The notes beneath the pieces were generated by a model that saw only the letters and a list, made by a program, of their open reading frames with translations, did not search any database and had not been told where the DNA came from. A DNA stretch of 64,000 nt from a virus: IMG/VR virus record IMGVR_UViG_3300042508_000428; one strand, written 5' to 3'. The position numbers were made by a program, and so were the translations under genes. Position 1 is the first letter of the stretch; every line of letters begins with the position of its first letter. Positions 5,349-63,846 of the stretch are shown piece by piece.

Positions 5349-6167
5349 ATGAAGATAAACCACAATAAAAAAAGAAATACATTATTTTTATACGAAGCTC
5401 TTGTAAGAGAATACACAAAAGCAAAATTAGATAATGATCCAAGAAAATTACAAGAGATTCGTAATTTATTTGTGGAATATTTTTCAGAAGGAAAAGTTCT
5501 CAAAGAAGAACTAAAAATTTATAAAGCCGTTCTTGAAACAAAAAATGTAGATAAAGAATTGGCAGAAAGAATTTTATCAGAAGCGAAAAGAATGTATTCT
5601 GGTCTTGGAATGGATAAAGTGTTCCAACAACAGAGTTCTTTGATCGCTAAAGTTAATCGTTCGTTAACTCCTAAGTTTTTTGCAAATTATGTTCCAAACT
5701 ATAAAGATATTGCTACTCTTCAACAAATCTTTGGAGAAAAAGTTTCCATTCCAGCAAGAATGTTGATGGAGAGACAAGCGATTGAGAAGATGACAGTTGG
5801 TGAACAAACATTAGATCAAATTAATGAGAAAATTGATAAGTATGTTGTTCATAGTTATTTAAATGCTTTTAACAAAAAATACTCTGATCTATTAGAAAAC
5901 CAGAAGTCTTTATTGAAGAAATATATGACTGCAACAGAAGATGATAATACTGATTTTGTTGTTTTCTTAAACGAAGAATTACAAAACATTTCTTCTAAAT
6001 TAAATACTGCTCACAATGTTGCAGAGATTAAAGAAGACAAAGAAATTCTAAAGAAATTAGTCGAAGTCAAAAAGAGATTTAACACTCTCAAAGATGAAGA
6101 AATTGACGAGAAGTATCTACAAAAGATCCTTAAATTCCAAAAACTCGTCAATGAATTAGAGAACTAA
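5349..6167 (+). CDS. Hypothetical helical protein of the head-assembly region
   Basis: Clean ORF, coupled to portal; ACTAATTAT motif variant at 5272. Confidence 0.7.
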   Translation: MKINHNKKRNTLFLYEALVREYTKAKLDNDPRKLQEIRNLFVEYFSEGKVLKEELKIYKAVLETKNVDKELAERILSEAKRMYSGLGMDKVFQQQSSLIAKVNRSLTPKFFANYVPNYKDIATLQQIFGEKVSIPARMLMERQAIEKMTVGEQTLDQINEKIDKYVVHSYLNAFNKKYSDLLENQKSLLKKYMTATEDDNTDFVVFLNEELQNISSKLNTAHNVAEIKEDKEILKKLVEVKKRFNTLKDEEIDEKYLQKILKFQKLVNELEN

Positions 6168-10217: not shown

Positions 10218-10808
10218 ATGAATAAATATGTTTTAACAGAATTTCTTGAACTTGATAACGATTCTTCTCTTCTAACAGAAGACGATAAGAGAATGATTGA
10301 AGCTGGCGATGTTATTCTTGCTGGCCGTTTACAAAAAGCAGATGCTAAGAACGGCAACGGCAGAGTTTATCCAAAGAGAACTCTCCAAAGAGAAGTGGAA
10401 AACTATAAAAAGCTTGTTCAAGAAAAAAGAGCATTAGGCGAATTAGACCACCCAGATTCTTCTGTTATTGAATTAAAGAATGCTTCTCACATTGTAACAC
10501 ACATTGAGATGAAAGGCGATGAAGTTGTTGGCAAACTAAGACTATTAGATACTCCAGCAGGTAGAATCGCTAAAGATCTTATTAAAGGTGGAGTCAAACT
10601 TGGTGTCTCTTCTCGCGGTCTTGGATCAACAAAAGAACAAAGCGGAGTTACGATGGTACAAGACGACTTCCAATTAATATGCTTTGACCTTGTTTCAGAA
10701 CCATCCACAACTGGTGCTTTCTTATTTAAAGAGCACAAAGAACCAAATATCTTTACAAAATCCGATAAGATTTATAGAGCAATAAACGACATTCTTATTG
10801 GAGAGTGA
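10218..10808 (+). CDS. Prohead core protease (T4 gp21-like)
   Basis: NGRVYP, LGELDHPD, GVSSRGLGS, FDLVSEPST motifs. Confidence 0.95.
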   Translation: MNKYVLTEFLELDNDSSLLTEDDKRMIEAGDVILAGRLQKADAKNGNGRVYPKRTLQREVENYKKLVQEKRALGELDHPDSSVIELKNASHIVTHIEMKGDEVVGKLRLLDTPAGRIAKDLIKGGVKLGVSSRGLGSTKEQSGVTMVQDDFQLICFDLVSEPSTTGAFLFKEHKEPNIFTKSDKIYRAINDILIGE

Positions 10809-12785: not shown

Positions 12786-14594
12786 ATGAGTTCAATGTTA
12801 GAGCAAGCAATTCTAGATGCTAAAGAATTAAAAGAAGCAGCAATTAAAAACGCCCAACAGTCCATTATCGAGAAATACTCTAATGAATTTGAAGGTGAGA
12901 TAGAAAAACTACTAGAACAAGCCGCTGCTCCAGCTGATCCCGCTGCGGCTGCTCCCGCTGCTGATCCAATGGCCGGTCTTGGTGCTGCTCCTGCGGCTGC
13001 TCCTATGCCCGGTATGACCATGCCAGGATCTGCTCCTGTTGATCCAGAAAAAGCAAAGTCAGACTCAGATAATAAATCTTCAATGTTTGATAAACTAAAT
13101 TATGCTTTTAAAGACGGAGAAGTAATTGAAGATAAAATTTTCCCAACAGGACTTGTTGAGGTAGATTTAGATTCTTTGTCAGAATTTAGTTTTGAAGATA
13201 ATAAAAAAACACCAGAACAAATGGCGTTACAAGAACTTAAAAACCTTTCTCTTAGAGAGCAGATTGAAGAAGAAATGAATGATGACGATGATTATGATTT
13301 CGATTCAGATTCTTTTCCATATGAAGACTCAGAAGAAGAAGATGATGAGAATGAAGAAGAATCAGAAGAAGACGAAGAACTAGACGACGAAGAATTCGAA
13401 GATGAAGACGAATTAGAAATGGACGATGAAGATTTTGAAGATAAAGATATGGAATCCGATTCGGATGAATTAGCAGATTTACAAGATTATAATGATGAAG
13501 GTAGTGTTGACCTAGAAGACGAAGAATCCGATATGGACATTGATATTGAAGACGAAGAGTTTACAGACGACGAAGATATGGAAGATGAAGATCTTTATGG
13601 CACAGAAGACGATGTAGGATTCCACGTTGATTACGATACAGACGAAGAGGATGAAGAATCCGAAGAAGACTATAATCCAGACGCTGACGTAGAAGATTTT
13701 GAAGATGAAGAGTCAGAAGAAGATGTAGACGAAGAAGAAGAGGACTCCGAGGAAGACGAAGAGGACGAAGAATATTATTATGACGACGAAGAGGAAGATT
13801 CTGAGGAAGACGAAGAAGATTCCGAAGAGGACGATGAGGAAGAATCAGAGGACGAGGAAGAAGATTTAGATGAAGCAAGAGATTTAACAGATAAAGAAAA
13901 GTCTAAACTTGACGATATTATTTCAAGATTAGAGAGAGCCTCTAAGTCTATCGAAAAAGGTAGTGCAAAGAATATGGTTGATGCTTCTGCTCGTCAACTA
14001 AAAGATCTACTAGATTCTCTTAAGGGTTCGGATAAAGAAGAACTACAAGAAGCTATTAAACTTGATTGGAAGAGATCTGGTCAAAGATCTCCATTCACCG
14101 GTATGTTTAAAGAAGAGGCAGAGCATGATTACATGCTAGAGCAAGTTCAAGCACAAATTGAAGCATTAGAACAAGAAGTCGAAGAACTTCAAGAATCTAA
14201 TAAAAAACTAAAAAGTGGTTTAAAAGAGTCAATTAATCTTGTTGAAAATTTAACTGATAAAGTTAAAAAATATGAACAAAAATTGCACGAATCAAGATTA
14301 TTGAATTATAAGCTACTATATACTAATAAGGCGCTATCAGATAGTTCCCTAAATGGACAGCAAAAAAATAAAATTGCTGAATCTATTGACGGTGCCAAGA
14401 CAGCTGAAGAAGTAAAATTGCTTTATGAAACATTAAAAAGCACAATGCGGGATGGAACCAGTAGAAGTACACCCAAATCATTGAGCGAGGCAGTTGAAAG
14501 ACGTTCTTCTTCACTTTTGCTAAGAGGCTCTCGTGCGGAGCCTAAGAAGCAAGATGATTTTGCTGAACGTATGAAACGGTTAGCAGGTTTATAA
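12786..14594 (+). CDS. Prohead core scaffolding protein (T4 gp22-like) with very long Asp/Glu tract
   Basis: Immediately upstream of MCP; coiled-coil C-terminus (QKNKIAESIDGAKTAEEVKLLYETL, RMKRLAGL); many LxE sites. Confidence 0.8.
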   Translation: MSSMLEQAILDAKELKEAAIKNAQQSIIEKYSNEFEGEIEKLLEQAAAPADPAAAAPAADPMAGLGAAPAAAPMPGMTMPGSAPVDPEKAKSDSDNKSSMFDKLNYAFKDGEVIEDKIFPTGLVEVDLDSLSEFSFEDNKKTPEQMALQELKNLSLREQIEEEMNDDDDYDFDSDSFPYEDSEEEDDENEEESEEDEELDDEEFEDEDELEMDDEDFEDKDMESDSDELADLQDYNDEGSVDLEDEESDMDIDIEDEEFTDDEDMEDEDLYGTEDDVGFHVDYDTDEEDEESEEDYNPDADVEDFEDEESEEDVDEEEEDSEEDEEDEEYYYDDEEEDSEEDEEDSEEDDEEESEDEEEDLDEARDLTDKEKSKLDDIISRLERASKSIEKGSAKNMVDASARQLKDLLDSLKGSDKEELQEAIKLDWKRSGQRSPFTGMFKEEAEHDYMLEQVQAQIEALEQEVEELQESNKKLKSGLKESINLVENLTDKVKKYEQKLHESRLLNYKLLYTNKALSDSSLNGQQKNKIAESIDGAKTAEEVKLLYETLKSTMRDGTSRSTPKSLSEAVERRSSSLLLRGSRAEPKKQDDFAERMKRLAGL

Positions 14595-14625: not shown

Positions 14626-16455
14626 ATGGCAAGTATAGTCGAAAGATTAACAGAAAATATTGTTGAAAGAAATCTCCTTCGTGAAGGCGCTGCCCTCTCA
14701 AAGAAATGGGAAAGAACAGGTCTTCTAGAAGGAATCGATAGTGAGATGACAAAGACAACCATGTCTCGTCTTCTCGAAAATCAAGCAAAGGAACTACTCC
14801 GCGAAGCTTCCACAATGTCCGCAGGTGACGTTGAAGGTTTCGCAGCAGTTGCATTCCCAATTGTTAGACGCGTATTCGGTGGTCTAATTGCAAATGAACT
14901 CGTTGCAGTTCAACCAATGAGCCTCCCAAGCGGTCTAATCTTCTTCCTTGATTTTACCTATAGCAATGACACAGGAAACAAAACATTCGCTGGTGCAGTC
15001 GGTGGCCAATCTATTTACGGCGGTAACGTTGTAGCTAGCCAAATCACTGGTGGTGTTAGCTTAACTGGTGTTGATGCAAGTGGCGTACAAAACCTAGAAA
15101 AGAGCTTCTACTCTTTAAATAACGGTTTCTCAAGCGTAACTGGCTCAAGAGTGCTTAATCATTCTTGGAATTATGGCAACGCTGGTAAGGCTGGTGCATC
15201 TTCTACGGTTGTTGTTTACCAAACTTCCAGCTGGACAGACGTTGGTCTATCAACTGCTACAGGTAGTTCATTAACTGGCTCAACAGATGCAGCGTTCGTC
15301 GCATACGATCCAGATGTTCTTGCAGACACTTCTGCTTTAACATACCAAAAATTAAGACTATTCTTTGATTTGGGAACTTGGAATCAACTAGATAGAAATA
15401 ATCTAGTAGCAATCAACATTACTGGTTCAACAATTTCTGGTTCATTGGTTAGAAGACTAACTAAATTGGGTCCAGTAAGCCAATCTTTAGATGTAGTTGT
15501 TAAAACAGATGCTGGTGCTCCAATTTCAGAAGTTGGTGTTGCCCCATCTATTGCATCAACAACTTTTGCAATTAGGGATACATTAACAACTGGTAATTCT
15601 ATAGGTTCTGTTCTTACCGATCTATATGGTCTAGAAGGCGCTGGATCTGGTTCAACATTGAATGGTCAGGATATTCCTGGGGCTAACTTTACAATTCCAG
15701 AGATTGACATCAAAGTTGATAGCATCGCTGTAACAGCTCAAACCAAGAAACTCAAGGCCAAGTGGTCACCAGAATTAGGTCAAGACCTAAATGCTTACCA
15801 TAATCTTGACGCCGAAGTTGAGTTAACAAGCATCCTCTCCGAGCACGTTGCTCTTGAAATCGATCAAGAAATCCTCAACGATCTCGTTAAGGGTGCAACA
15901 GCTGGTACTAAGTACTGGAGCCGTAGACCAGGTAAGTTTGTCAACCGTGACACAGGTGCAAGCATCACATCAGTTGGTGCCCCACCAGACTTCACAGGTA
16001 ATGTCAGCATGTGGTATGAAACACTCATTGAAACAATCAATGACGTTTCTGCTCAAATCCACAGAAAGACAAGACGTGGTGGTGCAAACTTCCTCGTAAC
16101 TTCACCAGAAGTTGCTAACCTCCTAGAGTTCACCTCTGGTTTCCGCGCTGATGTCAGCATGGAAGACCTAAAGGGCGGTTCAGTTGGCGCAGTCAAGGCT
16201 GGTAGCCTCAGCAAGAAGTTTGATCTTTATGTTGATCCATATTTCCCACGCAACCTAATCCTAGTTGGTCGTAGAGGCAAGGCATTCCTCGAAAGCGGTT
16301 ATGTCTACGCTCCATACGTCCCACTAATGATTACACCAACAATCTTCGGTACAGAAGACTTTGTACCAAGAAAGGGTCTAATGACTCGCTACGCCAAGAA
16401 GATGGTTCGTCCAGACATGTATGGCCTAGTAGTTTGCCAAGACCTAATTGGTTAA
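14626..16455 (+). CDS. Major capsid protein (T4 gp23-like) with central insertion
   Basis: VQPMSLPSGLIFFLD, KLKAKWSPELGQDL.AYH, ESGYVYAPYVPL, DFVPRKGLMTRYA motifs. Confidence 0.97.
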   Translation: MASIVERLTENIVERNLLREGAALSKKWERTGLLEGIDSEMTKTTMSRLLENQAKELLREASTMSAGDVEGFAAVAFPIVRRVFGGLIANELVAVQPMSLPSGLIFFLDFTYSNDTGNKTFAGAVGGQSIYGGNVVASQITGGVSLTGVDASGVQNLEKSFYSLNNGFSSVTGSRVLNHSWNYGNAGKAGASSTVVVYQTSSWTDVGLSTATGSSLTGSTDAAFVAYDPDVLADTSALTYQKLRLFFDLGTWNQLDRNNLVAINITGSTISGSLVRRLTKLGPVSQSLDVVVKTDAGAPISEVGVAPSIASTTFAIRDTLTTGNSIGSVLTDLYGLEGAGSGSTLNGQDIPGANFTIPEIDIKVDSIAVTAQTKKLKAKWSPELGQDLNAYHNLDAEVELTSILSEHVALEIDQEILNDLVKGATAGTKYWSRRPGKFVNRDTGASITSVGAPPDFTGNVSMWYETLIETINDVSAQIHRKTRRGGANFLVTSPEVANLLEFTSGFRADVSMEDLKGGSVGAVKAGSLSKKFDLYVDPYFPRNLILVGRRGKAFLESGYVYAPYVPLMITPTIFGTEDFVPRKGLMTRYAKKMVRPDMYGLVVCQDLIG

Positions 16456-43189: not shown

Positions 43190-43918
43190 ATGGAAGCTAA
43201 GTTTTTAAGAAAAATTATTTTAGAAGAACTAAAAAAAGTTTTAAAAGAAGTTGATTACCCAGATATTCCAGGATCAGAACCGGGACAAACAAAGAGTCCT
43301 TATCAAAAAGGTGCGACATCTAGAACGTCGAGACCAGCGATTAGTCGAAACGCAGTAGAAATTATGAAAATTCAAAGAGCTTTAAGAAAAATAATGGGAG
43401 AAGAATATAGAAGTTCTTGGCCCCAGGTTAATGGTAAACTAGATAAGCGTACAAGCAGACTTATAAAAATACTTTATCCAAGATTAAACCTTGATAAAAT
43501 TACAAATTTCAGAGCTTTATCTGCGGTTTTCGAACAGAGAGTTCAAAGAGGTGGTACATCAATAGCTGGAGAAACTTTTGATCAAATTCTTGATAAAGCA
43601 GTTGCTGCAGCGGAGCAACGAAGAGCAAGTGCTTCTGCTGGAATGGGTAAAGATACAGAAATTACCGCCGATTCACCAATGCCCACTAATGATTCAGGTC
43701 TACCAAAATCTCCTGATGATGTTTATGTACCGTTCACCGATAAAGAAACAATGGATAAAATGATTGGACCAAAAAAAGGATTTACCAGAGACCCTGATGC
43801 ATTAAAAGATACTGGTCCTAAAAAAGGAGAAGAAGAAGATATTAAAGTTAACTTACAAGATCCAATGAAACAAGAAGCATTAGTTAGAGCAATCAGCAAA
43901 CTTCTCAAAAAACTCTAA
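43190..43918 (+). CDS. Putative internal head protein with IILEE...LKE leader
   Basis: MEAKFLRKIILEELKKVLKE; late motif; inserted between helicase and RNR. Confidence 0.55.
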   Translation: MEAKFLRKIILEELKKVLKEVDYPDIPGSEPGQTKSPYQKGATSRTSRPAISRNAVEIMKIQRALRKIMGEEYRSSWPQVNGKLDKRTSRLIKILYPRLNLDKITNFRALSAVFEQRVQRGGTSIAGETFDQILDKAVAAAEQRRASASAGMGKDTEITADSPMPTNDSGLPKSPDDVYVPFTDKETMDKMIGPKKGFTRDPDALKDTGPKKGEEEDIKVNLQDPMKQEALVRAISKLLKKL

Positions 43919-47208: not shown

Positions 47209-47484
47209 ATGACAGACAATCAACTCAAAAAAATAATTTTAAATGAAATAAAAAATTTGTTAAATGAGCAAAGCGAATCGGATGTAAATGCTAATCTACA
47301 AACCCTTGTACAAGGTGCTAAATATCTAAGAGATAGACTTAAATCAGATCCGAGAGCAAGTGGTGTATTGTCTGCAATCGACAGTCTTATTAGGAAAGCA
47401 TATCCACAATATGAACAAATGTTAAATAAACAATCTGCAGGACAAGCTGGGTATAATCCAGAAACTGGTAAAAAAATTCCTTAA
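47209..47484 (+). CDS. Putative internal head protein with IILNE...LNE leader
   Basis: MTDNQLKKIILNEIKNLLNE; motif variant ACTATATAT at 47177; AGGAG SD. Confidence 0.55.
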   Translation: MTDNQLKKIILNEIKNLLNEQSESDVNANLQTLVQGAKYLRDRLKSDPRASGVLSAIDSLIRKAYPQYEQMLNKQSAGQAGYNPETGKKIP

Positions 47485-47504: not shown

Positions 47505-47546
47505 AAAACCCTATACACAAAATGTGTATAGGGTTTTTGTTTTTTT
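47505..47546 (+). terminator. Intrinsic terminator
   Basis: AAAACCCTATACACA / TGTGTATAGGGTTTT stem followed by long T tract. Confidence 0.85.
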
Positions 47547-47551
47547 ATAAA

Positions 47552-47560
47552 ACTATTTAG
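47552..47560 (+). promoter_or_regulatory. Putative late promoter motif ACTATTTAG
   Basis: 40 nt before ATG 47592; variant CCTATTTAA at 47893 precedes 47946. Confidence 0.65.
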
Positions 47561-47591: not shown

Positions 47592-47942
47592 ATGAAACTA
47601 CCTATTGTTATTGAAGATTCTTGGGTCCCTGGTTTTCTATCCAAATTTGCCAATGCAAATTTTATTGCTAACTCTTTCGCAATCTTTATTTTCTTTCGTG
47701 GAAAGATAATTGAAAAAACTTGGCGACATGAAATGATTCATTACAGACAACAAAAAGAGTTATTCTTTGTTGGTCAATGGATTTTGTATGCTTATTATTA
47801 TCTCGTTTGTCTTTACAAGCACAAAGATAGATATAAAGCTTATAGAGAGAACCCATTTGAAAAAGAGGCTTATGCCAATGACACTGATCCAACCTATTTA
47901 ATTAAGAGAAAAAAGTACGCTTGGAAAAATTACAGAGGATAA
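47592..47942 (+). CDS. Small HExxH zincin-like protein
   Basis: RHEMIHYRQQ...AYRENPFEKEAY. Confidence 0.6.
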   Translation: MKLPIVIEDSWVPGFLSKFANANFIANSFAIFIFFRGKIIEKTWRHEMIHYRQQKELFFVGQWILYAYYYLVCLYKHKDRYKAYRENPFEKEAYANDTDPTYLIKRKKYAWKNYRG

Positions 47943-47945
47943 ATA

Positions 47946-50717
47946 ATGGATAACCAACAAGTCCCAAAAGCGGACAGCAAATTCCAGAAAATAGCAAGAA
48001 AAAATCATAGAAAATGGAAGATTCGCTTACTATCAAAAGGCGGTCAAAAAGCCGATAGTGGTGGTGGACCATATAGTAAAAAACCAGATTATAATAGAGC
48101 AAAGTCTGCCCCTCCTGGATTTGGTGGTTCATTAGAAGAAGCAGAACAACTTGATGAAGTTATCAGAAAGAAAGATGGAAAGTATTGTTTGTTTTCTAAA
48201 AAAACAAACAGAAATTTAGGTTGTTATCCAACAAGGGCAGGAGCAATGAAAAGAGAGAAACAGGTTCAATATTTTAAACATCTCAAAGAAAATCAACATA
48301 ATGAAATTATTAACGAAGAATTATATCAAACTCTTTTAGAAGAAGGATTCTTAGATATGGTTGTTGATGCCATAGGATCAGGATCTACTTGGGTAAAAGA
48401 CAAATTGTTTTCTCTTCTTGGAGTTAGCGATGAAAAAGAAAAGAAAGGAATTTTAGGTTTTCTTACTTCTAAACTAGATACGAAGGAAGAAGTTGAGACT
48501 GCAGAAAAAAATGAAAAGCAAATAGAACAAGAATTAAAAGATTATATACAAAAAGAAAAAAATAAAAACAAAGGCAAAAAAGCATTAATATATGGTCATA
48601 GTCAAGCCGGAGGAGTTGGTCTTGGTCTTAAGTCTGCACTCAAATCCGTTGGTTATGATGTAAATCTTGTTATTAAAAATAGTGCAAATGACAGTCGATT
48701 ATTGAGAGAGATAGGTGACGCTGGAGATCCAAAACAATATGATAAAGTATATTTGTTTGTGGGTGGAAATTCTCCATATATTCCAAAAGTAGATTTGATT
48801 TCTTCTATGATTAATTTGTTTGGTCCAGAAAAAACGTCAATTGTGCTTCCTCCTACGAATATAGACAAATATAAAGTTGCCGACATAGGATCTAGAAACA
48901 AAGCAAACAAAGAAGGAATCCTCCAGAGATTCGGAGGAGTAGTAAAAGTTTATATTCCGTATGGTCACTCAAATGATTTTTCGGACGGAATACACATGAA
49001 TCATAATGCTCTTGGAACAAAAAGATTCATACAGGATATTTTTGCTGAAAAACCAAGCATACCGCCAGAAAAGCAAGGTATTAAAACCACAAGCGCAGTT
49101 GTAAAAAATTCTTTAAGCAGAAGGCAAAGAGAGATGGCAGGTTTAATTGAAAAGAGATTTATTGAAGCAGGATTGTCAAAAAATTTAGCACTAGCTGCTA
49201 TTGTAAATTCTTATTATGAGTCTAGTTTAAACCCAAGTGTAACTGGGGATCGCGCCGAGAAAGTTGATGGGCGTTGTGCTAGACAAGTTGAAGAAAAAGA
49301 AGGTCCAAAATCTCCATGTGGAGGAGGATTGTTTGGCATTCATTCTTGCGGAGGTATGGGAGGCTGTAGAGCTACTGGAAATGGTATGTCAATAGAAGAT
49401 ATAAAAGACCCAGAAAAAAGTATTTCAACAATGATAAATTATATAAAAAGAAAAGGATTTGATAAGAAAAACTTAGAAAATTCTGTTGAAGATATAACTT
49501 ATAATTTTTGTTACAGTTTAGAAGTTCCTAAAAATAGATTGATTAAATGCAGAAACAGAGCCAATTCTGTTTCACAAGTTCTTGAAATGTCTAATTTAAC
49601 TGAATCTAAAAAAATTACAATCAAGTTTGGTCAACAATTAACAGAGGGCAAGACAAAAGGTAAAGAAGATCGTTGTACTCGTATAGCAAAGAGCAAATAT
49701 GATGCTTGGCCTTCTGCTTATGCTTCTGGTGCTGTTGTTAAATGTCGTCAAGGCAAGATCTGGAAGAACATAAAAGAAGAGGAAGAATTAGACGAGACAA
49801 AGAAAAAAGCAAAACACGTCGCGAAGAAAGCGTTAGCATTGTGGCTTGCTGGTTCAACTGCGACAACCCCTCCGCCAGATGCAACAAAACCAGTAAAAAA
49901 AGCTTCTACATCTAAAGATGAAATAAAAGAAGAGTGGTCTGATTCTGAGAGAAAGAAGAGAAAAGCAAACTGTTCCAATCCAAAAGGCTTCACAATGAAG
50001 CAGTTCTGCAAGAATCAAAGAACAAAATCGAAAGAAGGTCAAAAGAAAAATGAAGAAATTCAGCTAAATGAAAAATGCTGGGAAGGTTATACTCAAAAAG
50101 GCATGAAAACAATGTTTGGAAAAAAATATCCAAACTGTGTAAAGAAAACAAACGAAGCAAAAGATCCAAAAGTTGGAACAGGTAAAAAACCAGAAGGTTC
50201 TGATCGTCGCTTATACACTGACGAAAATCCAAAAGATACTGTAAGTGTAAAATTTTCTACAGCAGAAGATATAAGAGATACTTTATCAAAAGAGTCTTTT
50301 AAATCAAAACCACATGCTCGTCAATCACAAATTATTAATCTTATTCACCAAAGAGTTCGTGCTGCTTACGAGAACGCTAAAGATCCAGAGGTTAAGTCCA
50401 GATTGAAAATTGCTCTTGATTATGCTGAAAAAAGAAAAGAGGCATCCAAGAAAAAGACAGAAGCAATGAAAGAGCTTGATGAGCGTAAACTTGGCAAACC
50501 TTCCAGCGAAACCAATTTAGGCGATTGGTTTAAAAGAAAAGGTGCCCCCGGAAAAGGCGGTGGCTGGGTAGATTGTAACACTTGTCGTGATGGAAAATGT
50601 AAGCCATGTGGCAGACAAGAAGGTGAAAAAAGAAGCAAATACCCTCGTTGCCGTCCAACACCTTCACAGTGCAAGGGCTATAAGAGAAGAGGCGATAATC
50701 TTCAAAAAGAGGAATGA
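47946..50717 (+). CDS. 923-aa modular protein: SGNH-hydrolase-like domain, phage-tail-lysozyme-like domain and many short basic Cys-containing modules separated by (L/I)xE sites
   Basis: YGHSQ...GGN...DGIH (about 48580-49000); AGLS...ALAAIVNSYYESSLNP...GLFG (about 49120-49580); modules WPSAYASG, CSNPKGFTMKQFC, CWEGY...PNCV, GTGKKP...LYTDENP, WF...WVDC...CGR...YPRCRP. Confidence 0.7.
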   Translation: MDNQQVPKADSKFQKIARKNHRKWKIRLLSKGGQKADSGGGPYSKKPDYNRAKSAPPGFGGSLEEAEQLDEVIRKKDGKYCLFSKKTNRNLGCYPTRAGAMKREKQVQYFKHLKENQHNEIINEELYQTLLEEGFLDMVVDAIGSGSTWVKDKLFSLLGVSDEKEKKGILGFLTSKLDTKEEVETAEKNEKQIEQELKDYIQKEKNKNKGKKALIYGHSQAGGVGLGLKSALKSVGYDVNLVIKNSANDSRLLREIGDAGDPKQYDKVYLFVGGNSPYIPKVDLISSMINLFGPEKTSIVLPPTNIDKYKVADIGSRNKANKEGILQRFGGVVKVYIPYGHSNDFSDGIHMNHNALGTKRFIQDIFAEKPSIPPEKQGIKTTSAVVKNSLSRRQREMAGLIEKRFIEAGLSKNLALAAIVNSYYESSLNPSVTGDRAEKVDGRCARQVEEKEGPKSPCGGGLFGIHSCGGMGGCRATGNGMSIEDIKDPEKSISTMINYIKRKGFDKKNLENSVEDITYNFCYSLEVPKNRLIKCRNRANSVSQVLEMSNLTESKKITIKFGQQLTEGKTKGKEDRCTRIAKSKYDAWPSAYASGAVVKCRQGKIWKNIKEEEELDETKKKAKHVAKKALALWLAGSTATTPPPDATKPVKKASTSKDEIKEEWSDSERKKRKANCSNPKGFTMKQFCKNQRTKSKEGQKKNEEIQLNEKCWEGYTQKGMKTMFGKKYPNCVKKTNEAKDPKVGTGKKPEGSDRRLYTDENPKDTVSVKFSTAEDIRDTLSKESFKSKPHARQSQIINLIHQRVRAAYENAKDPEVKSRLKIALDYAEKRKEASKKKTEAMKELDERKLGKPSSETNLGDWFKRKGAPGKGGGWVDCNTCRDGKCKPCGRQEGEKRSKYPRCRPTPSQCKGYKRRGDNLQKEE

Positions 50718-51250
50718 TGATAAAAATAATACTTGAATCAAAAAAGAAATATGTCCAAGTTCCTCTACCTGTAAAAAAGACAGATCTTGAGCCTGTTATG
50801 TCTTCTGACACAATTGATTACCACTATGGTTCGCTTTACAAAGGTTATGTCGATAAAGCTAACAAAGGTGTAGGTGGTGAGTTTCAAAAAGCAGGAGCTT
50901 TTCTTCACAACATTTGGTTCTCTCAGTTCAAGAAACCATCAAATCAAAAACCAGACGGTTTATTTCTTGAGCTTGTAAATAGAAAATATGGTTCTTATGC
51001 TTCTTTTCAAAAAGAACTCAAAGAAGTCGCAATGAAAATTCAAGGTTCTGGTTGGGTTTACACGGATAAGAACGGCAATATAAAGACCATTGCAAACCAC
51101 GAAATAAAACCAGACATTATCTTATTAATTGATTGGTGGGAACACGCTTGGGCATTAGATTATCAGGCAGATAAAGAAGAGTATTTAGACAACATTTACA
51201 AAGTTATTGATTGGAATGTTATAAATGCTCGTTTAGCGACGGAGAAATAA
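50714..51250 (+). CDS. sod: Fe/Mn superoxide dismutase with extra N-terminal IILE leader
   Basis: LEPVMS.DT.DYHY, LHNIWF, GSGWV, IDWWEHAW (metal ligands H, H, D, H). Confidence 0.9.
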   Translation: MMIKIILESKKKYVQVPLPVKKTDLEPVMSSDTIDYHYGSLYKGYVDKANKGVGGEFQKAGAFLHNIWFSQFKKPSNQKPDGLFLELVNRKYGSYASFQKELKEVAMKIQGSGWVYTDKNGNIKTIANHEIKPDIILLIDWWEHAWALDYQADKEEYLDNIYKVIDWNVINARLATEK

Positions 51251-51921: not shown

Positions 51922-52815
51922 ATGAGAGTTGAGAAATGGGATATTTTGATGCACCGCCTTCTAACAGAAAAGAAGGAAAAAGAAGAAAAAGCAAGCAAAT
52001 CGAAAGGTTCAAAGCCAGATTTTCTTGATTTAGATAAAGACGGTGATACTTCTGAACCAATGAAGAAGGCATCAAAAGAGTCGGGTGGTAAAAAAGAAAC
52101 AAAATCCAAGAAAGGAAAAGGCAAGATCCCTCCTCAACTAAAAATGCACATCAAGAAAAAGAAAAACAAACTTGATGAAGCAATTGAGAGACTAGAAAAA
52201 ATTCTTTTTGAACAACACGATCTTCAAGAATATGGAGAAGATAAACACCCTGATATTGAAGACGACGATGATGATTTTGATGCTGATGATCTGCCATCCT
52301 ATGGTGAAGAAGACTTTGGTGATTATGGCGAAGAAAGTATGAGAAAATTTGCTCAAAAATCAAAAAATTTTGCAGATAAATACACCGAAGAAGATGACTA
52401 TGAAGAAGAGGAAGAAGAAGATTACGAAGACGAAGATGATTTTGAAGATGATGATGATATGGAGGACGAAGAAGTTGAAGATGATGATGATATGGATTTA
52501 GATGATGAAAATGATATGGAAGAATATCTAACCGAAGCAGAGGTTAAGAAAAAACAACCACGACTTGGTAAAGTAACTCGTAATCCATCCGGCTCAAAAA
52601 AAAAGTTTCACGTCTACGTTAAATGTGGCGGAAGAGTAAAGAAGATCTCATTCGGTGATCCAGGATTATCAATTAAAAGAGATTCTGCTGCCCGTAGAAA
52701 GAACTTTAGAGCAAGACATAAGTGTGATCAACCAGCAGGAAAAGATCGTTGTACAGCGAGATATTGGTCTTGCTATCAATGGAGAGCAGGAAAGAAGGTT
52801 GAAGGCGAGGAGTAA
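51922..52815 (+). CDS. Putative internal head polyprotein: basic module, acidic tract, C-terminal basic Cys-containing domain
   Basis: LLTE leader; PDFLDLDKDGD.SEPMKKA; LDE, LQE, LTE sites; KKFHVYV...FGDPGL.I...RRKNFRARHKC...TARYWSC. Confidence 0.6.
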   Translation: MRVEKWDILMHRLLTEKKEKEEKASKSKGSKPDFLDLDKDGDTSEPMKKASKESGGKKETKSKKGKGKIPPQLKMHIKKKKNKLDEAIERLEKILFEQHDLQEYGEDKHPDIEDDDDDFDADDLPSYGEEDFGDYGEESMRKFAQKSKNFADKYTEEDDYEEEEEEDYEDEDDFEDDDDMEDEEVEDDDDMDLDDENDMEEYLTEAEVKKKQPRLGKVTRNPSGSKKKFHVYVKCGGRVKKISFGDPGLSIKRDSAARRKNFRARHKCDQPAGKDRCTARYWSCYQWRAGKKVEGEE

Positions 52816-53669
52816 TGAAACAACTTCTTGAAAATTGGAATAGATTTATCTTAAAAGAAGCTTCGTACCGCCAAGTTATGGAAAGATTTGGTAGTTCAAA
52901 GTTTCTTAAATCTTCCGAATTTAATCAAGTTGACCCAGAAGAGGCAAAGCAAAAGATATTAGAAACTGTACCAGAGAACTTTGATGTTCAAGAAAAAGCA
53001 AATTATCTGGATTGGAGAATCTCAACCTTTATCAAGACTGGTAAATATGAAGGTCCATCTGCTGAAATCGTCAAAAGATATTATGAGATTAAGTCTGACG
53101 AAGGCAAGAAGAAACTCCTTAACAAAATTAACATCTCAGATATAAACTCTGTTGAAGAATTTGAAGAGATCGTCTATAATGCTGAAGGATCTCTTGGAGA
53201 AAAAGAGAAGAGTAGAAAAGAAGAAAGTACATCTGGTGAAGGTCAAAATCTTGTTTATGAAGATGATAATTGGAAAGTATATCTTCCAGAAACCAAAGGA
53301 GCATCTGTTGCCCTATGTCGTGGACCAAACCCAGACGGAATCAAGGGTAAATCAACCAGAGCAAAATGGTGTACTGGTGTGTTGACAAGAAAGTATTATG
53401 AGGTTTATCATAAACCAGATAATCCTCTGATTATTTTTATTTCTAAATCTGATCCCGCTGAGAAATATCAACTTAGTTATTTTGGAATTTCAAGCGAATC
53501 TCCGTTCTGGAATCCAAATGATCCTGAAAAACCAGAATTTAAAAACAACAGAGACAAAGACATTACAGGAACGGATGTATTTTCGGAACTAAATAATATA
53601 GTAGCAAGTCTTGAAGATAAACTTCCAGAGAGAGTTGTTAATAAAGCAAAAAAATTTGCAGGAATGTAA
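52815..53669 (+). CDS. Putative internal head protein with PcfJ-like domain
   Basis: MKQLLENWNRFILKE leader; WKVYLPET..AS...KWCT...Y..Y...LIIF...KYQL. Confidence 0.5.
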   Translation: MKQLLENWNRFILKEASYRQVMERFGSSKFLKSSEFNQVDPEEAKQKILETVPENFDVQEKANYLDWRISTFIKTGKYEGPSAEIVKRYYEIKSDEGKKKLLNKINISDINSVEEFEEIVYNAEGSLGEKEKSRKEESTSGEGQNLVYEDDNWKVYLPETKGASVALCRGPNPDGIKGKSTRAKWCTGVLTRKYYEVYHKPDNPLIIFISKSDPAEKYQLSYFGISSESPFWNPNDPEKPEFKNNRDKDITGTDVFSELNNIVASLEDKLPERVVNKAKKFAGM

Positions 53670-53671
53670 AA

Positions 53672-54016
53672 ATGAACTTTAAAGATATAAACGACAAATG
53701 GAAATCCTTCTTGACTGAAAATGCTTTCAAAGAAGATAAACTTGTCAAAAAAGATAAGAAAGAAAAAGTTAAAGATAAAAAAGGCAAAAAGAAAGAATTA
53801 ATTGTTTCCGAAGAAGATGATGTAAATGAATGGGAAGAATTTGAAGAAGCCGTAATTAATGAACCATCTGGCGCTGGTGTAAATAAAGCAATAAACTCCG
53901 TAGAAGAAAATGAACCACTAGAAGAAATGTCTGCCATGTCCGGCGGAGCAGTTCAGGGTTTTGCTGGTAATGCTTTTGGAACTCCTGTTAGAAGAAGAAA
54001 AAAGAGAAGACATTGA
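53672..54016 (+). CDS. Putative internal head protein
   Basis: MNFKDINDKWKSFLTE leader; INE and LEE sites. Confidence 0.55.
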   Translation: MNFKDINDKWKSFLTENAFKEDKLVKKDKKEKVKDKKGKKKELIVSEEDDVNEWEEFEEAVINEPSGAGVNKAINSVEENEPLEEMSAMSGGAVQGFAGNAFGTPVRRRKKRRH

Positions 54017-62907: not shown

Positions 62908-63846
62908 ATGGCGAAACGTAAAGATTTACTTTTAACAGAATCAACAACAATGAGAATGATGGGACTTGCTGGTATTGGTTCCCTAGCAAATCCGTTTTTG
63001 AGAGAAGGCGCGAATGTAGATACAGCAGAGGATCCAAATAGTGTTGACTTTGATATGGACGACATGGGTGACATGGATGACATGGGCGATGTTGACATGA
63101 TGGAAGAAGGTGAAGAGCTAGATGAAATGTATGGCGAAGAAGACTCAATGATGGAAGAATCATACGAAGAAGAGATGGAAGAAAATCTCTATGAAGGCGA
63201 AGAAGACCTAGAAGAAGCAAAGAAAAAACCACATGGCGATGGTGATGATAGTGATGATTATGAAGAAGACGAAGATCTAGAAGAAGCAAAGAAAAAAGAA
63301 AAATGCCCACACTGCCATAAAATCCACGAAGGAGATTGTGGGGCGATGAAGGAAAGTATTCGTAGAAGCATGAGTAGATTAAAGAGACTTCTAGAACAAG
63401 CAGAAACCGATGCGCCACCACCACCAGCAGCAGAACCACCACCAGCAATGGAAGGTGGAGATCAAATGGAAGCAAAGATTAAAGAGTTCGTAAAGAAACT
63501 TGGTGAATTAGTACAAGAAACACTAGGCGTGGAAGTTAAGGTTGAGGAAGAAGGTGAAGAAGAAATGGAGCCAGCAGAAGGCGGAGAGGGCGAAGAACCA
63601 GCAGGCGCATCACCTCCACCACCAGCCGCTCTACAAGAGGCAATTGACCGCCTAGTTAATAAAGTTGCTCTCAGAGTTAAGGCTCGTTTAATGGAAGCAA
63701 AGAAAGATCCAAAAGCTGCAGCAAAAGCTAAGAAAATGATGAAAGAAAAGCAAATGGCTGCAAAGAAAAAAGAGAAAGAAGAAGCTGCCAAGAAAAAAGA
63801 AATGATGATGAAGAAAAAGAAAGCAGCAATGGCTAAGAAGAAATAA
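62908..63846 (+). CDS. Putative prohead core/internal protein, acidic body with Lys/Met/Ala-rich tail
   Basis: LLLTE leader, repeated LDE/LYE/LEE/LLE/LQE/LME sites, RMMGLAGI motif resembling the scaffold end RMKRLAGL. Confidence 0.6.
   Translation: MAKRKDLLLTESTTMRMMGLAGIGSLANPFLREGANVDTAEDPNSVDFDMDDMGDMDDMGDVDMMEEGEELDEMYGEEDSMMEESYEEEMEENLYEGEEDLEEAKKKPHGDGDDSDDYEEDEDLEEAKKKEKCPHCHKIHEGDCGAMKESIRRSMSRLKRLLEQAETDAPPPPAAEPPPAMEGGDQMEAKIKEFVKKLGELVQETLGVEVKVEEEGEEEMEPAEGGEGEEPAGASPPPPAALQEAIDRLVNKVALRVKARLMEAKKDPKAAAKAKKMMKEKQMAAKKKEKEEAAKKKEMMMKKKKAAMAKKK

Follow-up and report, generated by a model that had tools for sequence, protein, structure and literature searches.

A candidate head-cargo polyprotein with prohead-protease-type joints in an uncultured marine T4-like phage

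In bacteriophage T4, the prohead protease gp21 cleaves after the Glu of L/I-X-E tripeptides (PMC9026906). A 10-residue N-terminal sequence directs the internal proteins of T4 to the prohead core and is then cut off by gp21 (PMC9026906, PMC3012670). The present study deals with a 923-residue open reading frame (ORF) in a 64,000-nucleotide stretch of viral DNA, IMG/VR record IMGVR_UViG_3300042508_000428 (this whole stretch is called the window). The window is part of an uncultured marine T4-like myophage. Every long ORF is on the plus strand, and the genes include those of the terminase, portal, gp21-type protease, major capsid protein, tail sheath, and tail tube. The 10-kb neighbourhood has no megablast match among cultured phages, which leaves no close DNA-level relative in culture. 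The 923-residue protein is a chain of modules joined mostly at [LI]-x-E tripeptides, and we consider it probable that it is a head-cargo polyprotein processed by the gp21-type protease, in an extension of the T4 internal-protein system. We infer that it is loaded, cleaved, kept in the head, and then ejected.

In the proposed mechanism, the precursor would be made late and would enter the prohead core. There, the gp21-type protease (family Peptidase_S77, hereafter S77) would cut it after the Glu of the [LI]-x-E joints. This would yield a 46-kDa two-domain cell-wall enzyme (SGNH esterase-like plus lysozyme-like), eight or nine small proteins (3-13 kDa) that are basic and in most cases carry a single Cys pair, and a few short spacer peptides. 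These products would remain in the DNA-filled head, and would exit with the DNA at infection.

Among the closest described systems is the cargo of T4, namely IPI, IPII, IPIII, and Alt (PMC9026906, PMC3012670). The likeness lies in the S77 protease family, in the tripeptide rule, in the short leaders of relatives, in the basic and diverse products, and in a fast-evolving repertoire, with Alt showing that the head can take up a large enzyme. However, T4 cargo consists of single proteins that receive one N-terminal cut, whereas here there are up to ~12 joints, and one chain unites unrelated mini-modules with an enzyme pair. In addition, thousands of relatives carry the modules in shuffled form, and a 65-residue N-terminal module stands in place of the 10-residue targeting sequence (CTS) of T4. 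The inner-body or ejection proteins of phiKZ, 201phi2-1, and SPN3US receive several S/A-X-E-type cuts from a gp21-like protease (PMC9026906, PMC7411985, PMC10052503). The resemblance would be in the multiple cuts after Glu in each head protein, the redundant sites, and the ejection of cargo with DNA. In the giant phages, though, the cuts mostly strip propeptides from large proteins and do not set free arrays of autonomous, interchangeable mini-proteins, and both P3 preference and lineage differ. The polyvalent proteins (Iyer, Burroughs, Anand, de Souza, Aravind 2017, PMC5512222) are also multi-domain and mosaic, often contain lysozymes, and are predicted to be packaged and delivered with the DNA. 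They differ by their known enzymatic effector domains and by the intrinsic metallopeptidase proposed for their processing, while the 923-residue protein has tiny uncharacterised basic modules and a prohead-protease motif at the joints. Like a polyvalent protein, it combines two enzyme domains with at least seven small modules, and terminase and portal genes are found in the window. Pfam and PHROGs searches detect no peptidase domain within the ORF, and hence no intrinsic processing peptidase of the polyvalent type. In the podovirus T7, the head-internal core protein gp16 has a lytic transglycosylase domain and leaves the capsid at infection. It is similar to our chain in its head-internal peptidoglycan-cutting domain, but it is non-homologous and is not known to be cut into modules by a protease. 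When the literature was searched for cargo polyproteins or CTS leaders of marine T4-like phages, the papers found dealt with T4, giant phages, and polyvalent proteins only; none described interchangeable mini-proteins strung together at gp21-type sites in such phages.

Modules and joints of the chain

The modules (Table 1) were defined independently, from the ends of homologue alignments. An exhaustive HMMER search with the 923-residue protein yields 3,399 proteins at E<=1e-3 and 297 at E<=1e-30. The best 150 listed range from 115 to 1,180 residues, and each matches parts of the query only. The alignment ends cluster at query residues ~565, 617, 657-661, 699-709, 735-739, and 842-848. In these relatives the order of the modules varies widely; a module may be repeated, stand alone, or be fused to another enzyme, and module E by itself matches well over a thousand clusters at 50% identity.

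Table 1. Positions of the features discussed in the window. A slash marks the end of an [LI]-x-E or similar joint; residue numbers (aa) are those of the 923-residue protein.
Feature	Position	Strand	Remarks
T4 gp21-type prohead serine protease (Peptidase_S77), proposed processing enzyme	10218..10808	+	PF03420 E 2e-25
Major capsid protein, N-terminal 35 residues with five [LI]xE (IVE, LTE, IVE, LRE, LLE/G)	14626..14730	+	
Intrinsic terminator hairpin, 15-bp stem and T run	47505..47537	+	closes upstream unit
Late-type promoter motif ACTATTTA	47552..47559	+	40 nt before first operon gene
116-aa HExxH (HEMIH) zincin-like protein, first operon gene	47592..47942	+	phrog_15610 'protease', no Pfam match
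Candidate polyprotein ORF	47946..50717	+	923 aa, 103 kDa, pI 9.6
N-terminal basic module, aa 1-65	47946..48140	+	ends SLEE/
Mini-module N2, aa 72-115	48159..48290	+	2 Cys, net +10, between LDE/ and LKE/
Two short acidic spacer peptides, aa 116-133	48291..48344	+	INE/ and LLE(E)/ sites
Enzyme unit, aa 134-553	48345..49604	+	46 kDa, without accessible LxE between its two domains
SGNH-hydrolase-like alpha/beta domain, ~aa 209-369	48570..49052	+	GHS, GGN, and DGIH blocks; AF2 pLDDT 70-88
Lysozyme-like helical domain, ~aa 389-551	49110..49598	+	AF2 pLDDT 80-92
Conserved 14-aa peptide SKKITIKFGQQLTE	49605..49646	+	flanked by two LTE/ sites
Module A, aa 568-617	49647..49796	+	WPSAYASG motif, 2 Cys, ends LDE/
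Segment B, aa 618-662	49797..49931	+	Lys/Pro-rich, linker-like, ends IKE/
Module C, aa 663-709	49932..50072	+	CxNPKGF...C, 2 Cys, ends LNE/
Module D, aa 710-737	50073..50156	+	CWxGY...NC, 2 Cys, ends TNE
Module E, aa 738-846	50157..50483	+	GTGKKP..RRLYTDENP, helical, most widespread module, ends LDE/
Module F, aa 847-923	50484..50714	+	WFKRKG..GWVDC..CGR..CRPT, 6 Cys, net +12

The initial annotation had proposed that nearly every module boundary falls right after an (L/I)-x-E tripeptide. This holds for eight of the nine boundaries (LDE/72, LLEE/134, LTE/554, LTE/568, LDE/618, IKE/663, LNE/710, and LDE/847), the ninth being TNE/738, in which P3 is neither Leu nor Ile. Thirteen of the 15 tripeptides in the protein lie outside the ~340 residues that fold as enzyme domains. 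The total of 15 is a modest excess over composition-matched shuffles (8.5 +/- 2.6; p ~0.014, z 2.45), but 8 of the 57 ORFs of the window, DNA polymerase among them, equal or exceed this z. We consequently dropped raw enrichment as evidence: it is the placement of the motif, not its count, that is unusual in this protein.

Placement can be followed in the 150 relatives, where the nearest [LI]xE end was scored in non-redundant upstream flanks. The tripeptide is found exactly at -1 of module D in 45 of 49 flanks, and at the same position before N2 (9/9), C (23/34), and E (45/114, with ten more at -2). Before module A it sits at -3 to -9, behind a Lys-rich lead-in (16 of 22 flanks), and before module F at exactly -8 in 14 of 29 (LxE/RKLGKPSS). 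Controls with [LI]xK, [VMF]xE, or the reversed motif give no comparable peak at the joints, [VMF]xE being rare. Since the residues ahead of the tripeptide vary with the preceding module, the tripeptide itself appears to have been retained through shuffling, as a Glu-specific signal whose middle residue is free. As read from these alignments, the joint rule is the one documented for T4 gp21, cleavage after the Glu of L/I-X-E (PMC9026906).

The tripeptide might instead be structural, forming linker helices or N-caps in a multi-domain chain that stays uncleaved, for example a virion- or lysis-associated cell-wall hydrolase with basic binding domains. Such an arrangement would fit the general over-representation of [LI]xE in the helical proteins of this genome, polymerase included, and the fact that the 923-residue protein has no short targeting leader. 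It fits the joints poorly: replacement of Glu by Asp ([LI]xD control) is absent or nearly so, the motif occupies -1 of unrelated modules whatever comes before, and it is missing where the same module is found in genomes without S77, although a structural cap would travel along. We therefore think it unlikely that the chain remains whole.

Links to the prohead protease

A processed cargo chain needs a protease with the matching rule, and the initial annotation had pointed to a gp21 homologue in the window. This assignment is sound: besides its Pfam match (Table 1), the protein matches the T4 gp21 structure 5JBL at E 1.8e-15 and has the catalytic motifs, GELDHP for His and GVSSRG for Ser. The capsid protein acts as an internal control. 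Mature T4 gp23* aligns to it only from ~residue 47 on, and the five tripeptides ahead of this point suggest a propeptide removed by the T4 cleavage rule. The capsid protein is long for a gp23 homologue (609 residues) and probably carries a large insertion, because only residues ~64-133 and 359-590 align to T4 gp23. Two more ORFs of the head region, both on the plus strand and without PHROG match, are candidate scaffold or core proteins: 5349-6167, with 12 [LI]xE in 272 residues (z 3.5), and 12786-14594, with 17 in 602 residues.

The flank of module E varies with the phage. In 80 IMG/VR loci that hold this module, there are two classes: in the first, [LI]xE precedes the module, which comes after a leader of 10-15 residues or forms part of a long chain; in the second, the module is a leaderless stand-alone gene of ~94-103 residues (MAKDPK..., MADPK...). 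PF03420 was then searched for in 30 IMG/VR records of at least 16.7 kb with module E, 27 of which exceed 40 kb. S77 is detected in 10 of 19 LxE-flanked records of any completeness, and all nine negatives are at most 41% complete. Among LxE-flanked records that are at least 42% complete it is present in 7 of 7, including near-complete genomes (~100%) of 269 and 295 kb. It is also found in both records with a non-L/I flank (VNE/ or MNE/), and in none of the nine records without an x-x-E flank, which include genomes of 96 kb, 91 kb (with terminal repeats), and 59 kb that are 95-100% complete. Cultured phages show the same pattern. Flavobacterium phage immuto (vB_FspM_immuto) has S77 and a 157-residue A-F protein, encoded by immuto35A_186, with LSE/, LKE/, and LQE/ joints, while Pelagiphage HTVC033P has no S77 and a leaderless stand-alone module E (gp40, L003:2989-3279). 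Other leaderless copies are found in L073, L062, and L065, which together with HTVC033P are phages of 53-96 kb without S77; in this group the stand-alone gene encodes 94-113 residues. The association of LxE flank and S77 is supportive but is not proof, the records being few and related. As to the question of whether homologous modules are shuffled or stand-alone and always flanked by the motif, both arrangements occur; the flank is missing in genomes without S77.

Many relatives also have a short N-terminal leader. Among 142 unique N-termini that start with Met, 96 have an [LI]xE ending at residue 5-22, as compared with 19% in internal windows of the same proteins. The recurrent types are MNLQE/, MKLILE/NW..F..E/, MKKIIKLTE/, MN.LTKFLLE/, MKIKI....L.E/, and MENWRQFIAE/; MKIKIKRKLVE/ and MISLNNILNE/ are further examples. 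The MENWRQFIAE/ type ends like the targeting sequence of T4 IPIII. By analogy, these leaders resemble the 10-residue T4 sequence removed by gp21.

One relative has been detected in virions. The SSM1_115 protein of cyanophage S-SM1, annotated as T4-LIKE GC 119, has modules A, D, and F in common with the 923-residue protein (E 1e-10, 8e-9, and 0.002, respectively). In the work of Sullivan et al., T4-GC 119 is listed as "Structural protein," with 13 peptides in purified S-SM1 virions, and its gene length ranges from ~0.3 to 3 kb among cyanophages (PMC3037559 Table S8). Such a spread is as expected of a shuffled chain. The cyanophage proteins (S-SM1 SSM1_115, S-P4 AYR01841; PMC3037559) are thus alike in their homologous A, D, and F, their variable length and modularity, and their detection in virions. 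They differ by having no enzyme unit and by joints that are mostly x-N-E or Q-M-E.

Several observations weigh against processing of the 923-residue chain as head cargo. The first is its N-terminus, the main gap in fitting the T4 model: there is no short (~10-residue) CTS-like leader, and the first [LI]xE ends at residue 65. The basic 65-residue module that ends there in SLEE/ is common to 15 relatives, in which it is N-terminal, and is C-terminal in three others; it is possible that it is a core-binding or propeptide piece rather than a short CTS. Second, one joint of the chain is TNE, and cyanophage relatives, exemplified by the S77-containing S-P4, are joined by Q-M-E, T-N-E, and Q-N-E. Third, the excess of [LI]xE is ordinary for this genome. 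Fourth, the relatives are not phylogenetically independent, so that the flank counts overstate the number of independent events, and the association with S77 rests on 30 mostly fragmentary records. Finally, the gene is outside the head module, among genes for nucleotide metabolism and auxiliary functions, namely ribonucleotide reductase, Fe/Mn superoxide dismutase (SOD), and ThyX, downstream of the structural genes. The prohead-protease reading of the initial annotation is partly supported, by the position-exact Glu joints, the leaders, the co-occurrence with S77, the late-type motif, and the virion-detected relative; the N-terminal module and the TNE joint leave it incomplete.

The predicted products

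Cleavage at all joints would give 13 fragments, nine of them at least 27 residues long, which makes the earlier figure of about ten products reasonable. The largest fragment is the enzyme unit. An AlphaFold2 (AF2) model of residues 135-560, built from six sequences in the alignment, has a mean per-residue confidence (pLDDT) of 70 and shows an alpha/beta domain and a helical domain separated by a disordered linker without [LI]xE. The two [LI]xE within the unit are in confidently modelled helices, whereas those that flank it are in low-pLDDT ends. The top Foldseek matches of the alpha/beta domain comprise SGNH hydrolases as well as OatA and PatB, which are peptidoglycan O-acetyltransferases (E 2e-4 to 1e-3), with template-modelling (TM) scores by target of 0.5-0.6 for a model of this limited depth and confidence. 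None of the Pfam SGNH families passes its threshold on the 923-residue protein. For the helical domain, Phage_lysozyme2 (PF18013) matches residues 401-541 at E 0.005 with 17.6 bits, under the gathering cut-off of 28.2. The domain is nonetheless likely to be a distant member of this family, because the relative P0156, which is 57% identical, has PF18013 in its precomputed annotation. The SGNH-like and lysozyme-like reading of the initial annotation agrees with the model, with Foldseek, and with the weak Pfam match. An esterase that removes O-acetyl groups would make a sensible pair with a muramidase for opening the cell wall.

The unit behaves as a cassette. In relatives the pieces on its upstream side (N-terminal module, N2, and short spacers with LxE) stay the same, as does the 14-residue peptide downstream, which reads …KKI[TI]IKFG..L.E/ and is kept after differing enzyme cassettes. 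The place between them is taken by the SGNH and lysozyme pair, by a transglycosylase-like domain, by some other domain, or by no domain at all. In P0018 (L004:4895-7501), P0107, P0115, P0129, and P0139, module E is fused to a nucleotidyltransferase-like domain, GGGFKPPTKGHFE, and to a further C-terminal domain. The leader of these fusions is MNLVNELIKGLLPE/, and module E is present twice in P0018. Because of this fusion, metabolic enzymes also seem to ride in such chains.

The mini-module products are predicted to be basic throughout (pI 9.0-10.2). N2, A, C, and D have one conserved Cys pair each, and F has six Cys. Searches of the whole protein against Pfam and PHROGs give no mini-module family above threshold; the PHROGs that it does match, 727 and 9737, are families of unknown function. 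The initial annotation had foreseen that standard annotation would call the ORF one hypothetical protein, and a near-identical public entry of 916 residues indeed has that name alone. The model of module E (pLDDT 83) consists of an extended Lys/Gly-rich arm and helices, and Foldseek finds nothing for it in the PDB at E<=0.001. VIA-align gives generic helical hairpins (best Z 7.4), which are uninformative, and an ESM Atlas look-up gives unnamed viral clusters only, with DUF5771 at 0.81 as a weak lead. In module A, P0016 and P0017 have an intein-like insertion of ~280 residues with C...HN-type ends (window equivalent ~49728). As this insertion sits exactly inside the motif, between WPSAYA and SG, it suggests that WPSAYASG is the functional core of the module. 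By analogy with the T4 internal proteins, the mini-modules could neutralise DNA charge (PMC3012670), or they could be injected effectors. The DNA- or metal-binding and effector roles put forward earlier are conjectures from the basic charge and the conserved Cys pairs.

These same small basic fragments are what would be expected of DNA counter-ions, and they raise the question of whether the chain is a core- or scaffold-type S77 substrate, like T4 gp22, gp67, and gp68, with fragments that are expelled or serve only assembly or charge balance without delivery to the host. In T4, cleavage at numerous L/I-X-E sites breaks the core proteins down into small peptides (PMC9026906), and module E has no recognisable functional fold. 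However, each mini-module is a discrete and highly conserved unit, and the Cys pairs are invariant; one module has an intein in its core motif, and where a phage has no S77 the modules can still be found as genes of their own, all of which argues that they function autonomously. For module E in particular, the stand-alone leaderless genes without S77 suggest a function that is independent of the T4-type capsid route. A cell-wall enzyme pair also makes little sense as disposable scaffold. We hold a pure core or scaffold role to be improbable, and a delivered cargo polyprotein to be the better account.

A broader reading, to which we give somewhat less than an even chance, is that marine and other aquatic T4-like phages have plug-and-play capsid cargo, in which any small protein or enzyme could be enlisted by gaining an [LI]xE leader or by insertion into a chain at an [LI]xE joint; the head protease would unpack the chain, and in phages without S77 the modules would be ordinary leaderless genes. 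Basic Cys-pair mini-proteins, cell-wall enzymes, nucleotidyltransferases, and perhaps the neighbouring SOD would then be injected as a host-takeover and anti-defence kit for the first minute. If the cargo-polyprotein account is correct, a considerable part of the small proteins now called "hypothetical" in abundant ocean myoviruses would be virion cargo delivered at infection rather than products of synthesis after entry, and the T4 internal-protein paradigm, now limited to single tagged proteins, would take in shuffled polyproteins as well. The account would also supply a sequence rule (S77 together with a leader or joint) by which capsid cargo could be predicted from metagenomes, and would explain the long mosaic ORFs returned by gene callers. 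The chains would be natural templates for packing more than one protein into a capsid of the T4 type. The cultured relatives S-SM1 and Flavobacterium phage immuto make the reading directly testable.

Operon, expression, and neighbouring genes

The 923-residue ORF is the second gene of an operon in the order zincin, 923-residue ORF, SOD, next gene. It has an AGAGGA Shine-Dalgarno sequence upstream, and it starts 4 nt past the stop of the zincin gene. The motif ACTATTTA, which stands ahead of the operon, has 18 copies in the window versus 4.25 expected, a number that none of 100 shuffles reaches. Sixteen copies are on the coding strand, mostly 13-45 nt ahead of start codons; those upstream of the tail sheath gene, of the head-tail adaptor gene, and of the operon ending in the capsid gene are at 23-45 nt. 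The T4 late promoter TATAAATA was rejected, as it is not enriched (6 copies versus 5 expected). ACTATTTA is probably the late promoter box of this phage in its place. Late expression of the 923-residue operon is likely, because the motif precedes both structural operons and this operon, where it comes right after a terminator. The 18 sites span 410-62881 (e.g., 12753, 21900, 24553, 43160, 47552, 51892, and 62874), and several non-structural genes are also preceded by one.

The zincin next door brings in another protease that could process the chain, conceivably in the cytoplasm. Its HEMIH motif, its match to a PHROG named "protease," and its place in the same operon all speak for it, and Iyer et al. 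have proposed peptidase-mediated processing of polyvalent proteins (PMC5512222). Yet of the 85 loci examined, just one has a zincin homologue close to a module-E gene (L038 of IMG/VR, 42% identical, ~1.3 kb away), the flank motif tracks S77, and the motif equals the gp21 rule (PMC9026906). Processing by such an enzyme thus seems very improbable, and the S77 protease is still the proposed one.

Leaders of the type found in relatives are also seen in other genes of the window. The SOD gene (50714-51250) starts with the short leader MMIKIILE/, and ORF 52815-53669 starts with MKQLLE/NWNRFILKE/, a type found in many relatives. ORF 47209-47484 has …KKIILNE/IKNLLNE/, ORF 43190-43918 has …RKIILE/, and ORF 62908-63846 has …DLLLTE/, while 51922-52815 and 53672-54016 are other leader-bearing neighbours. 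Together these genes may form a larger cargo gene set, and some of them also follow ACTATTTA.

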